From the NCBI GenBank assembly GCA_963762145.1, contig CAVXJS010000014.1:64001-128000 (forward strand): a stretch of 64,000 nt of DNA. Reading direction: 5' to 3'. The translations under genes were made by a program, and so were the position numbers. The notes under the pieces were generated by a model that searched no databases, had not been told where the DNA came from, and saw only the letters and a program-made list of their open reading frames with translations. Shown here piece by piece: positions 39,874 to 42,575 of the stretch. Numbering within the stretch: the first letter of the stretch is position 1; the number at the start of each line of letters is the position of its first letter. This DNA comes from an uncultured Candidatus Rokubacteria bacterium (lineage in GTDB: Bacteria; Methylomirabilota; Methylomirabilia; Rokubacteriales; CSP1-6).

Positions 39874-41268
39874 TCACGCCACCCGGTAGCGCGCCTGCCC
39901 GGCCTGCACGTCCTTGTTGAGCTTCTTGCTCAGGTGCAGGCCCTCCAGCACGAACTCGACCGCGGCGGCCACGCTCGCCGGGTCCTGCGCCCCGAGCTTG
40001 CGCACCGCCGCCTGCAGCGGGCGCACCTGGCCGAGGTGCCGGAGGTAGAGATCGGCGGGCATGGAGTCGGAGACCTCGATCTTGAGCCCGTCCTGGAAGG
40101 CGCCCACCACCTCGTCCAGCTCGCCGGAGGTGAAGCTGCGGTTGAACACGTTGAGCAGGGCGCGCTGCATGATCTTGGACATGACCTTGTCCTCGGTCGC
40201 GTCGCCCAGGCTCTCCATCTCGATCTTGCCGCCGGTGGAGGCGGCGATGGCGCCGAGGTCGCTCACCCGGGGGGCGGCCACCGCCTCGCCGAGGCGGATC
40301 GCCCGCTTGACCGCGCTCGACAAGATGTTCTCGTAGTTGCAGATCGTCACGCGCACCGATACCCCCGAGCGCTGGCTGATCTCGGGCGAGCGGCGGGCCA
40401 GATGGGTGACCTCGGCCACGAGCTGCTTCATGAACTCCGGACTCCGGGTCTCGAGGCCCGCGTCGGCGTAGGTGGTGCGCTCCGCCTCCATGATCGCGAT
40501 CTCGTCCTCCACCCGCCTGGGGTAGTGGGTGCGAATCTGCGAGCCGAAGCGGTCCTTGAGCGGGGTGATGATGCGCCCGCGGTTGGTGTAGTCCTCCGGG
40601 TTCGCGCTCGCCACCACGTAGAGGTCGATCGGCAGCCGCACCTTGTATCCGCGGATCTGCACGTCGCGCTCTTCCATGATGTTGAGCAGGCCCACCTGGA
40701 TGCGCTCGGCCAGGTCCGGCAGCTCGTTGAGCGCGAAGATGCCGCGGTTGGTGCGGGGCAGGAGGCCGTAGTGGATGGTGAGCTCGTCGGAGAGGTAGCG
40801 GCCCTCCGCGACCTTGATCGGATCCACCTCGCCGATCAGGTCGGCGATCGTGATGTCGGGGGTCGCGAGCTTCTCCCCGTAGCGCCGGTCACGCGGGATC
40901 CAGGCGATCGCGGCCTTGTCTCCCTGTTCGCCGACGCGCTGGCGGCACGCCGAGCAGATGGGAGCGAGCGGCTCGTCGCTGATCTCGCAGCCGGCCAGCG
41001 CGGGCATCTCCTCGTCGAGAAGGCCGACCAGCAATCGTGCCATGCGGGTCTTGGCCTGGCCGCGCTCGCCCAGGAAGACGATGTCCTGGCCGCTCAGCAC
41101 CGCGTTCTCGATCTGGGGCACGACGGTCTGCTCGTACCCCACGATGCCGGTGAAGAGGCCTTCGCCGCGGCGCAGCCGGGCGATCAGATTGTCCCGCAGC
41201 TCCTGCTTGACGGAGCGAGACACATACCCGCTGTCGCGCAGCTCTCGAATCGTGGTCGGCTTCGCCAT
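39874..41268 (-). CDS. Mg-chelatase-like AAA+ ATPase
   Basis: GERGQAKT Walker A variant; EKLATPD; FALNELPDL Walker B variant; ANPEDYTNRGRIITPLKDRFGS. Confidence 0.9.
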   Translation of the reverse strand: MAKPTTIRELRDSGYVSRSVKQELRDNLIARLRRGEGLFTGIVGYEQTVVPQIENAVLSGQDIVFLGERGQAKTRMARLLVGLLDEEMPALAGCEISDEPLAPICSACRQRVGEQGDKAAIAWIPRDRRYGEKLATPDITIADLIGEVDPIKVAEGRYLSDELTIHYGLLPRTNRGIFALNELPDLAERIQVGLLNIMEERDVQIRGYKVRLPIDLYVVASANPEDYTNRGRIITPLKDRFGSQIRTHYPRRVEDEIAIMEAERTTYADAGLETRSPEFMKQLVAEVTHLARRSPEISQRSGVSVRVTICNYENILSSAVKRAIRLGEAVAAPRVSDLGAIAASTGGKIEMESLGDATEDKVMSKIMQRALLNVFNRSFTSGELDEVVGAFQDGLKIEVSDSMPADLYLRHLGQVRPLQAAVRKLGAQDPASVAAAVEFVLEGLHLSKKLNKDVQAGQARYRVA

Positions 41269-41292
41269 GAGGGCTCCCTTCGCTGTGGGCTC

Positions 41293-41362
41293 ACTATGCG
41301 GCGGGCGCTGGCCGCTGTCAATCCGCGCACAACTTGACACGCTGCGGGAGCCCGGTCAGGAT
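41293..41362. promoter_or_regulatory. Back-to-back divergent sigma70 promoters
   Basis: Minus: TTGACA(41321-41316)-17-CATAGT; plus: TTGACA(41334-41339)-17-CAGGAT(41357-41362). Confidence 0.7.
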
Positions 41363-41369
41363 GCGGATC

Positions 41370-41636
41370 ATGCCGACGGGACGGGGTTGGTGGGGCCGGC
41401 TCCTCCTGGTCATCCTGCTCGTGCTGCCGCTTCCCGTCGCGCTCGACCTGTGCGACGACGCCGCCGAGAGTGACGAGAACCGGCTCCGCGTTGCGGCCGG
41501 CGTGCAGTCCGACTCCGCGTGGGGCCTGCCCGCGCCCACGTCCGCTCGGCCCGCGGGCTGGCCCGATCCCCACGACCCGGTCATCGCCGGCTGGATCTGT
41601 CTCACTCCGTCCGACCGCGCGCCTCCTCGCGCCTGA
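41370..41636 (+). CDS. Putative leader / ribosome-arrest peptide (N-terminal hydrophobic signal, C-terminal RAPP)
   Basis: RLLLVILLVLPLPVA then ..SDRAPPRA*; ATG lies 7 nt after the -10 box; anti-SD in final codons. Confidence 0.7.
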   Translation: MPTGRGWWGRLLLVILLVLPLPVALDLCDDAAESDENRLRVAAGVQSDSAWGLPAPTSARPAGWPDPHDPVIAGWICLTPSDRAPPRA

Positions 41637-41699
41637 TCACTTCGCGCGCACCGTTCCCGTCGCACGATTCATTCCCCGTCACGCGAGGAGACGCACGAC

Positions 41700-41954
41700 A
41701 TGAAGACCATTCTGCTCACCATTGCCGCGCTCGGATTCGCCGTTTCGCCCGCCCTGGCTCACGAGTGCCCGCTGCTGCAGCAGCAGGTCCTCGCCGCCGC
41801 CGACTACCGGCTGGACGACGCGGCGTACAAGGCGAAGATGATGGCCGCCGAGGGCGACGCCCTCCACAAGGCGGGCAAGCACGACGAGTCCGTGGCCAAG
41901 TACGACGAGGCCGCGAAGACGATGGGCATCTCGCTCACCCACAAGCCGAAGTAA
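41700..41954 (+). CDS. Small secreted His/Cys protein (predicted mature N-terminus HECP)
   Basis: GAGGAG SD; signal peptide ending ALA; helical EGDALHKAGKHDES; strong GC3. Confidence 0.85.
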   Translation: MKTILLTIAALGFAVSPALAHECPLLQQQVLAAADYRLDDAAYKAKMMAAEGDALHKAGKHDESVAKYDEAAKTMGISLTHKPK

Positions 41955-41972
41955 AGCCACCGCCGCACGCGA

Positions 41973-42006
41973 CGCGCCCCGGGGAGCCGACCGGCCCCGG
42001 GGCGCG
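41973..42006. terminator. GC-rich hairpin between convergent genes
   Basis: 12-bp perfect stem CGCGCCCCGGGG/CCCCGGGGCGCG; no U-tract. Confidence 0.55.
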
Positions 42007-42017
42007 CTCCGTCCGCC

Positions 42018-42575
42018 TCAGACGGTCTTGCGGGGCGGGAGCAGGTAGCCGATCAGCAGGACGTTCAGGTGGAGCAGCAGCAGCTTGTTCCACGCCACCG
42101 CCGCCGCGAGCGCGGCCGCCGGGTCGTCCAGCTCGTCGCGAAAGATGCCGGCGAGCGCGGTCTGGGTGAGGCTCATCGCGGCCACCATGAACTGCGGAGG
42201 GATCTTGCCGCCCGGCCCGTAGTCGCGGTGGCTGTGGGCGAGGCCGACCGAGAGCAGGTAGTAGACGAAATCGTGGGTCAGCGCGGCCTCGGCGGTCTCG
42301 CGCAGCCAGCGGGCGAGGCTGTGCTTGCGACGGTCGATCCGGCCGCGGTCCGGCGTCCCGTCCGGACCCAGGAAGAAGCGCGCGGTCGCGGGAAATCGGA
42401 GGAAGTGCTCGTAGAGCGCGGTGGTCAGCGCGGCCTCGTGCTTCAGGATCGCGGGCGCGCTCGCGCGGATGGCGGCCGTGTCCGCCTCGTCCAGACCGAC
42501 GAACTCGGCCAGCTCCCGGACGTACCGCTCGAGATCGGCTCCCGGGGGTACTCGCTCGTCTTCCTCGCCGCCCAT
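42018..42575 (-). CDS. Single-domain protoglobin / sensor-globin family protein
   Basis: EFVGLDEAD..LYEHFLRFP.TARFF; VGLAH proximal His; AWNKLL; GGAGG SD. Confidence 0.8.
   Translation of the reverse strand: MGGEEDERVPPGADLERYVRELAEFVGLDEADTAAIRASAPAILKHEAALTTALYEHFLRFPATARFFLGPDGTPDRGRIDRRKHSLARWLRETAEAALTHDFVYYLLSVGLAHSHRDYGPGGKIPPQFMVAAMSLTQTALAGIFRDELDDPAAALAAAVAWNKLLLLHLNVLLIGYLLPPRKTV

Follow-up and report, generated by a model that had tools for sequence, protein, structure and literature searches.

A Candidate RAPP-Type Arrest Leader Ahead of a Small Exported Cys/His Protein in Candidatus Rokubacteria

Organization of the Two-Gene Unit

The locus considered here lies in a stretch of 64,000 nucleotides (nt) from an uncultured Candidatus Rokubacteria bacterium (phylum Methylomirabilota; assembly GCA_963762145.1, contig CAVXJS010000014.1, positions 64,001 to 128,000). 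This whole stretch is called the window, and its numbering is used throughout, on the plus strand unless stated otherwise. Bases 41334–41954 read as a compact plus-strand unit of two genes, in which a leader open reading frame (ORF) ending close to the motif Arg-Ala-Pro-Pro (RAPP) precedes the gene of a small exported protein, the target. Promoter-like boxes, TTGACA (41334–41339) and CAGGAT (41357–41362), are separated by a 17-nt spacer and conserved in orthologous loci. They are followed by the leader ORF of 88 amino acids (aa) plus stop (41370–41636), assigned from its G+C content at third codon positions (GC3) and its intact homologues, by a 63-nt intergenic spacer with 26 C and 15 G (41637–41699), and by the target gene for an exported protein of 84 aa (41700–41954), assigned from its ORF and a family alignment. 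The GC content of the genome is 70%, and the GC3 values of 0.88 for the leader and 0.94 for the target are coding-like. An earlier inspection of the DNA letters (the sequence-only reading) had described the promoter boxes, the 88-aa ORF, its RAPP tail and an exact 9-nt complement between the tail codons and the Shine–Dalgarno (SD) region of the target, all of which are present.

The leader ATG at 41370 is located 7 nt 3′ of CAGGAT, which leaves no space for an SD sequence between the two. Boxes resembling TTGAC[AT]-N17-CA[GCA]GAT occur in 24 of 26 orthologous loci examined, and in 23 of these 24 an ATG follows the second hexamer after 6–7 nt (L006 has ATA); the other two loci, L041 and L050, show no promoter box within the span available. 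The leaderless transcript start that the sequence-only reading placed at the leader ATG is plausible from this spacing. A sigma-70 promoter scan did not list the plus-strand TTGACA-17-CAGGAT site because CAGGAT has only three of six base matches. A search of sequencing runs for the locus listed 24 runs, none with half of the query words.

Conservation of the Leader and its RAPP Tail

The 84-aa protein was matched in 39 of 61 related genomes, a tally that counts one unpublished genome (G029). Twelve loci, the one in the window included, carry orthologues that are 75–100% identical and come from a single genus, and a metagenome scan contributed 21 further orthologous loci for a total of 33. The comparison is thus confined to one clade at the level of a genus, together with relatives from metagenomes, and these sequences are not independent of each other. 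Conservation of RAPP across orthologous loci had been set as a test by the sequence-only reading and is borne out, as the tail is found in 32 of the 33 loci, with L011 as the exception. A scripted search recovered 31 of the 33; L048 fell below its length filter, has the tail and is a duplicate of L047. Removal of duplicates left 28 distinct tail-to-start sequences, all of which encode RAPP. In the loci with correct coordinates, the target starts 56–64 nt after the leader stop and runs in the same direction. Among the natural variants, L041 has lost the leader stop codon and gained a four-residue extension, and in L005 and L052 the body of the leader is frameshifted, possibly through assembly errors, with the tail kept.

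The leader does not accompany the target family as a whole. Reading of 18 paralogue loci by eye revealed no leader, and among 59 further metagenome loci the sole RAPP leader was that of L052, itself an orthologue. On the sequences compared, the leader is restricted to one paralogue of the target.

The leader exhibits a basic N-terminus followed by a hydrophobic stretch, an acidic patch, a variable spacer and the conserved, putative arrest tail. Its most hydrophobic Kyte–Doolittle 15-mer spans residues 11–25 (41400–41444), a predicted signal anchor or signal peptide. The acidic patch, defined by composition, corresponds to residues 26–36 (41445–41477; D26, D29, D30, E33, D35, and E36) and lies 49–59 residues ahead of the first RAPP proline. 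The tail delimited by alignment comprises residues 72–88 (41583–41633; V-I-A-G-W-I-C-L-T-P-S-D-R-A-P-P-R-A). Within it, RAPP occupies residues 83–86 (41616–41627), and the protein ends S-D-R-A-P-P-R-A-stop with two residues between RAPP and the stop codon. The codons from R83 onward are CGC GCG CCT CCT CGC GCC TGA.

Alignment of 21 complete leaders (88–100 aa, each with an intact ORF) revealed identities of 31–73% between the window leader and the others. M1, P56, and R83-A84-P85-P86-R87 are invariant, and W8, L11, L16, D35, T79, P80, and D82 are conserved in at least 90% of the sequences. The last ten columns reach a mean identity of 0.86, as opposed to 0.50–0.68 elsewhere. The middle of the leader is variable and contains insertions and deletions, and motifs such as D-D-G-W and A-W-x-L-P-A-P recur there in a closer clade of leaders. 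A hydrophobic 15-mer falls within residues 11–30 in all 21 leaders (judged on the hydropathy scale only), and a mean of 5.9 acidic residues is located 45–64 residues before the first RAPP proline. The flanking genes for an AAA+ protein and a protoglobin are mostly 80–98% identical in the same loci, and the leader body is therefore fast-evolving while the tail is held fixed. A conserved tail attached to a freely changing body is, at the level of the alignment, the pattern of an arrest peptide.

The window leader contains two cysteines, through which the sequence-only reading had proposed metal-dependent folding. The aligned leaders carry between zero and three cysteines each, with none in 6 of the 21 and no conserved column, and at most one histidine. 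Since neither residue is conserved, Cys-based metal sensing is unsupported, and no conserved ligand-binding residues were seen among the aligned leaders. Searches with the leader returned no Pfam match at E ≤ 1 and no NCBIfam match above cut-off, and an assignment to DUF2946 (PF11162) was therefore set aside; the conserved CXXC or CxxxC site is absent as well.

The Anti-SD/SD Helix and Codon Choice

The last codons of the leader are complementary to the start region of the target. The anti-SD arm CTCCTCGCG (41623–41631), contained in the codons CCT CCT CGC G, is the exact reverse complement over 9 nt of the SD arm CGCGAGGAG (41682–41690), and both arms are recovered in the consensus fold. The SD itself, GAGGAG (41685–41690), lies 9 nt before the target ATG at 41700. 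With 88% complementarity, the inverted repeat can be followed over 16 nt (41616–41631 with 41682–41697). Copies of the 9-mer number eight on both strands of the window, compared with 3.56 expected, and it appears unlikely that a chance copy would fall less than 60 nt from its complement and at the putative stall codons. When the 28 distinct tail-to-start sequences were folded together with RNAalifold, the single structure obtained was the 9-bp anti-SD/SD helix. Of its 252 cells, 241 hold the common pair, 7 a G-U pair and 4 a broken pair. An alternative GCGCGC hairpin formed by 41617–41622 and the spacer is not kept across loci and was not chosen by RNAalifold.

Codon usage changes at the border of the helix. 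In the 28 sequences, the three preceding codons vary synonymously (Asp: GAC 15, GAT 12, with GGC for Gly once; Arg: CGC 24, CGG 4; Ala: GCG 21, GCT 6, GCC 1), whereas the codons inside the helix are frozen, with CCT for the first proline and CGC for the arginine in all 28, and CCT for the second proline in 26 (CCC in two). The sequence-only reading had called CCT unusual for this genome; indeed, CCT makes up 3.2% of the proline codons (1736/53628) in 1995 long, high-GC3 ORFs of the genome. Recoding of D-R-A-P-P-R-A in 5000 draws by genome codon usage produced only 13 synonymous versions that pair as well; the duplex between the tail codons and the SD region has −27.1 kcal/mol as observed, compared with a mean of −17.8 (standard deviation 3.1) after recoding. 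The 4 nt located 5′ of the SD are likewise conserved (CGCG 21, TGCG 6, other 1). The codon choice points to selection for pairing, as the sequence-only reading had suspected.

Other RAPP Leaders in the Same Genome and Beyond

A six-frame search of the genome (G000) for frames with R[AG]PP at most 12 residues from the stop, which also had to contain a hydrophobic 15-mer and reach a GC3 of 0.8, reduced 795 raw frames to six ORFs, the window leader and five others. These five end in RAPP plus two to four residues and are followed by the next gene after 57–102 nt. Their targets are TatA (PF02416, 63 bits), TonB (PF03544, 72 bits) and three proteins without a family match, namely a lipoprotein-like protein of 135 aa and secreted proteins of 475 and 149 aa. 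In minimum free energy (MFE) folds of the window and tonB leaders, the RAPP codons are the partner of the downstream SD; for the tatA leader and both leaders on contig C11, its partner is a CU-rich tract directly behind the stop codon. For the sixth leader, on contig C8, the predicted SD masking is weak.

The tatA leader (contig C10, L111:247–531; tatA at 608–802) has 94 aa with two hydrophobic segments and ends R-V-R-A-P-P-R-A-stop. Twelve loci of the genus have kept this leader, all with RAPP, and the two among them that lack the post-stop tract carry CCT CCT in RAPP instead. This either/or placement supports, as far as the sequences can tell, that an anti-SD has been selected for at the putative stall site. 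A single literature search yielded no paper describing an arrest peptide upstream of tatA; one supplement of PMC12992588, which possibly lists tatA, was outside the search. The tonB leader (contig C9, L114:182–712; tonB at 815–1579) comprises several hydrophobic segments and a His-rich stretch and ends G-R-A-P-P-S-A-I-L-stop, and its codons GCT CCT CCC TCC GCG pair with the tonB SD region in a long predicted helix. On the minus strand of contig C11 (L112), two similar RAPP leaders are arranged in tandem with ends at 2301 and 1492; they share Y-N-E-E-H-V after the anchor, terminate in S-R-A-P-P-L-A and S-R-A-P-P-F-A, and precede the 135-aa lipoprotein-like gene and the 475-aa secreted protein, one each. 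The remaining leader (contig C8, L113:214–498) is a signal-bearing protein of 94 aa with a D-D-D-D-G-D patch, ends S-R-A-P-P-A-R-stop and precedes the gene of the 149-aa protein (556–1005). All six leaders carry Asp or Glu 49–59 residues before the first RAPP proline, just after the N-terminal anchor, and their acidic patches often read Y-x-D-D-D-G. Either descent as paralogues or a common force-sensing design may account for this resemblance.

When reference genomes were scanned for the tail pattern of 21 nt, 79 places emerged, of which 10 belong to the module described here, 4 to independent leaders and 65 to apparent chance frames. Eight of the 10 module places stand under Methylomirabilota, Methylomirabilia or Rokubacteria titles and two under other labels. 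The four independent cases are small ORFs ending RAPPR[AV]-stop in Thermoanaerobaculia (L133, L149, and L203) and Nitrospira (L198). They share the codons CCT CCT CGC. Downstream of each come GGAGG and the gene of a secreted protein with an N-terminus that, when read by eye, resembles that of TonB-dependent receptors.

The Target Protein

The target possesses a signal peptide ending A-L-A and a mature part that is predicted to form a three-helix bundle. An alignment of 33 family members, from orthologues and paralogues to remote relatives with identities as low as 33%, shows A20, C23, P24, H56, H61, and A71 to be invariant, in agreement with the small exported Cys/His protein that the sequence-only reading had recognized. 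The AlphaFold model has a mean predicted local distance difference test score (pLDDT) of 86 and helices at residues 22–34, 40–57, and 61–75. The order of the helices would place Cys23, His56, and His61 at the same end of the bundle, a clustering that suggests a metal or cofactor site. These three residues are kept throughout the family, paralogues included. The paralogues (about 50% identical; L013–L027 and, in the same genome, C11:694137 and C11:868546) have a strong SD and no leader, and in most cases follow, at a distance of about 100 nt, an ORF with an apparently UvrC-like end.

No curated Pfam or NCBIfam family matched the target above cut-off, and TPR-like matches were set aside at 16 bits compared with cut-offs of 25–27. 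PF27144 (PA14_33160 family) is annotated on two distant relatives of 41–48% identity and on 24% of the members of one Atlas cluster; a literature search found no paper on PA14_33160. Foldseek returned nothing from the PDB at E ≤ 0.001. The best match in a wide VIA-align search was apo LanD (Z 8.7, root-mean-square deviation 2.0, 59 aligned residues), followed by a designed uranyl binder (Z 8.1), SmbP (Z 7.0) and Csp3 (Z 6.0). By the guidance of this tool, values of Z below about 13 may reflect a common arrangement only in helical bundles. No function was drawn from these matches. A scan of 37 ORFs flanking 20 distant homologues revealed no recurring partner.

Flanking Genes and Additional Elements

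Upstream of the unit lie divergent genes for an AAA+/ChlI-like ATPase and a VWA protein, and downstream lies the convergent protoglobin gene. Between the latter and the target gene, a repeat search identified a GC-rich inverted repeat with 21-nt arms of 81% complementarity (41964–42015; no strand assigned). It is possibly a two-way terminator; it contains no T-run, and a terminator scan gave weak minus-strand sites only. A promoter-like TTGACA-17-CATAGT on the minus strand (10/12 matches) faces the AAA+ gene. It lies 13 nt away from the TTGACA box that precedes the leader on the plus strand; the two sites stand back to back (41293–41339), and both TTGACA boxes are conserved in orthologous loci. 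Rfam contained no family matching 41250–42050 at E ≤ 1.

A Proposed Model of Stall-Dependent SD Unmasking

Considering these features, it is rather probable that the leader is a translation-arrest peptide of the RAPP type and that a ribosome stalled on it exposes the SD of the next gene. In free mRNA, the bases CT-CCT-CGC-G would pair with CGCGAGGAG and hide the SD of the target. During synthesis of the leader, its hydrophobic segment would bring the nascent chain to the membrane. Once the ribosome reaches R-A-P with the second proline codon in the A site, peptide bond formation would fail and a pause would ensue; by analogy to ApdA, ApdP, and CruR as described in PMC10951233 and PMC12992588, Pro85 (41622–41624) is predicted to occupy the P site and Pro86 (41625–41627) the A site. 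The ribosome parked on the proline codons would keep the anti-SD arm in its mRNA channel, leaving the SD free and allowing translation of the target. A bacterial ribosome covers about 15 nt downstream of the P-site codon, and with the P site at 41622–41624 the arm at 41623–41631 would therefore lie inside the ribosome and the SD outside the helix. Release of the pause, most likely by a pull on the translocating chain, would lead to termination two codons later, upon which the helix would re-form. Target output should consequently rise when release is slow. The hydrophobic anchor is located 60–70 residues from the stall site and would thus be outside the tunnel by the time of stalling. Release itself would be most simply explained by pulling during translocation.

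Several observations weigh against this reading. L011, which lies at the start of a contig and begins 104 nt upstream of the target, has no RAPP part and a leader reduced to the hydrophobic part, and L050 has neither promoter nor leader N-terminus. The fold check suggested by the sequence-only reading gave a divided answer, as the helix is present in the MFE fold of 41590–41720 (131 nt), while the stability of this fold is ordinary (z = −1.06; 27 of 200 shuffles are as good), so that thermodynamics alone proves nothing. The same holds for the conservation of pairing across loci, which stands, and for the covariation expected along with it, since compensatory double changes occur in none of the nine pairs among the 28 sequences. 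Covariation could hardly appear here because coding constrains one arm and SD function the other, and its absence is therefore weak counter-evidence; the shallow clade limits covariation further. In the two sequences with CCC as the second proline codon, a C-A mismatch arises and the SD side is unchanged. The rare proline codons could also have been selected for slow decoding at the stall site and not for pairing, yet this would leave the frozen CGC and the conserved CGCG 5′ of the SD unexplained. Finally, RAPP is mildly depleted in the long ORFs of the genome (70 seen, 94.5 expected); the ratio is only 0.74, and the motif alone is therefore no proof of arrest on these ribosomes, all the more as published work reports the upstream context to matter.

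Comparison With Known Arrest Systems

Small secretory or membrane proteins with a C-terminal RAPP or RGPP motif upstream of diverse genes have been described as a class (Fujiwara et al., EMBO J 2025, PMC12992588). Seven such proteins of Streptomyces lividans, as well as CruR, arrest translation in vitro, and the arrest resists elongation factor P (EF-P) (PMC12992588). The window leader shares every sequence-level feature of the class as described there: a small protein (below 300 aa) with a localization signal and RAPP two residues from the C-terminus, a variable body with a strictly conserved core, and a downstream gene in the same direction that is not a Sec/YidC gene. The sequence-only reading had spoken of a possible new arrest-peptide module, which overstates the case considering this published class (PMC12992588). 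The locus would instead extend the class by a new phylum, a new target family and an unusually explicit RNA design. Neither Methylomirabilota nor Rokubacteria is mentioned in the main text of PMC12992588 or in its searched supplements (one file was outside the search), and its available text does not name the target family. A further difference is the explicit, predicted SD-masking helix built from the proline codons.

Among the individual systems, CruR (Bp2923) of Bordetella pertussis, a DUF2946 protein (PF11162), is encoded by an upstream ORF, is exported and has RAPP at a distance of three residues from its end; it controls the next gene in a RAPP-dependent manner and, according to this account, without involvement of EF-P (PMC9426467). 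It has a conserved CXXC located 45 residues before RAPP, senses copper, acts through Rho-dependent termination and uses frequent codons for RAPP (PMC9426467). The window leader resembles CruR as a predicted exported ORF with a near-terminal RAPP before the presumably controlled gene. It differs in that it matches no Pfam family, lacks a conserved Cys and uses rare CCT codons, which are complementary to the SD. Another member of the DUF2946 family, CutF of Rhodobacter capsulatus (cutFOG), is a co-translationally exported leader, as the present one is predicted to be. It is described as stalling at PPP in an EF-P-sensitive manner, carrying a CxxxC copper site and controlling a multicopper oxidase (10.1101/2025.02.05.636593), in contrast to the RAPP end, the lack of a conserved Cys site and the different target seen here. 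In both SecM and CutF, stalling of the ribosome opens a stem in which the following ribosome-binding site is concealed (10.1101/2025.02.05.636593, PMC10951233), and in SecM stalling is relieved by pulling force (PMC10951233). The sequence-only reading had named CutF and CruR together as precedents for SD unmasking; given the Rho-dependent mechanism described for CruR (PMC9426467), only CutF and SecM fit.

ApdA, ApdP, and SecM regulate secDF or secA, whose products feed back on release, whereas the target here is a small periplasmic Cys/His protein without a known export role. As the sequence-only reading had noted, it is not a Sec or YidC gene, and no Sec, YidC or Tat family matched it. A monitoring substrate of the SecM, MifM, VemP or ApdA/ApdP type was set aside, as the downstream gene is not a localization machine.

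Alternative Explanations

Instead of unmasking the SD, the arrest may control transcription polarity, with a ribosome at RAPP blocking Rho-dependent termination in the C-rich spacer and its release letting Rho act, which is how CruR is described as working (PMC9426467). Both the spacer and the sequence around it are rich in C and poor in G (26 C and 15 G in the 63-nt spacer; C/G of 1.6–2.0 in 60-nt windows between 41580 and 41730). The spacer also contains a C-rich block, CCGTTCCCGTCGC (C-C-G-T-T-C-C-C-G-T-C-G-C and surroundings; 41637–41681), which is conserved near coding level across the 28 sequences, lies outside the consensus helix and is possibly a Rho loading site; polarity would account for this otherwise unexplained conservation. 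However, the frozen CCT-CCT-CGC codons and the exact SD complement would be left without explanation, and 63 nt is short for Rho loading. Polarity is therefore considered unlikely as the mechanism of this locus, although Rho polarity and SD unmasking may coexist.

Plain translational coupling is likewise improbable. According to this explanation, any ribosome on the last leader codons opens the helix, RAPP merely prolongs the opening, the amount of target keeps a constant ratio to translation of the leader and nothing is sensed. The helix lies beneath the last five codons of the leader, so terminating ribosomes would also melt it, and the lack of conserved ligand-binding residues in the leader fits a system that does not sense. 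Translational coupling usually involves overlapping or abutting stop and start codons, whereas the two are 63 nt apart here. The invariant R-A-P-P and its conserved 10-residue context exceed what coupling needs, as does the architecture of membrane anchor and acidic patch that recurs in six leaders.

It is very unlikely that the 88-aa product functions in its own right as a small membrane protein, such as an anchor or partner for the 84-aa protein, and that its tail and codons are conserved for reasons of protein function or mRNA stability rather than for stalling. The intact ORF in all 21 complete leaders and the recurrence of some mid-region motifs would agree with such a role, but the body changes much more rapidly than the genes next to it and contains insertions and deletions, conservation is strongest in the last ten residues, with a known arrest motif at their end, and synonymous freezing points to a constraint at the RNA level. 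Chance, by which an off-frame rich in Arg, Ala, and Pro in 70% GC DNA would have acquired its terminal RAPP and its SD complement by accident, might be suspected from the 795 stop-to-stop frames with R[AG]PP within 12 residues of the stop in this genome and from the 65 of 79 reference matches that look like chance frames, yet it is effectively refuted by the tail being kept in 32 of 33 loci, by the coding-like GC3, and by the conserved promoter-to-ATG spacing and the frozen codons.

Implications for RAPP Leaders and Their Organisms

The 2025 work on RAPP leaders leaves open, in its available text, whether the arrest does control the downstream gene and how it would act on it (PMC12992588). The locus in the window addresses these points, control of the downstream gene and its mechanism, with a simple two-gene system in which the stall codons would themselves be the anti-SD. 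Natural variants are at hand in the form of the CCC second codon, the leader deletion, the lost stop codon, and tatA leaders with the anti-SD either in RAPP or behind the stop codon. Furthermore, the class would reach Methylomirabilota and a target family with an invariant Cys/His/His triad, and a single genome contains six such leaders, one of them ahead of tatA.

A more speculative and on balance doubtful proposal is that the six leaders form one sensor family for translocation force or membrane potential, and not for a ligand. Each would consist of an N-in anchor, an acidic patch, a variable spacer, and RAPP with two to four further codons. A force-profile study describes a pull on an Asp5 segment that depends on the membrane potential and peaks about 50 residues from the peptidyl transferase center (10.1101/310698), a distance matched by the acidic patches of the leaders. 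Since acidic residues after an N-in anchor are to be expected anyway, the patch is a lead only. When the potential or Sec activity falls, the six ribosomes would stay parked and the targets would be unmasked together. If true, this would constitute a nascent-chain regulon without a transcription factor, which includes TatA and TonB, both linked to the proton-motive force, together with the Cys/His/His protein.

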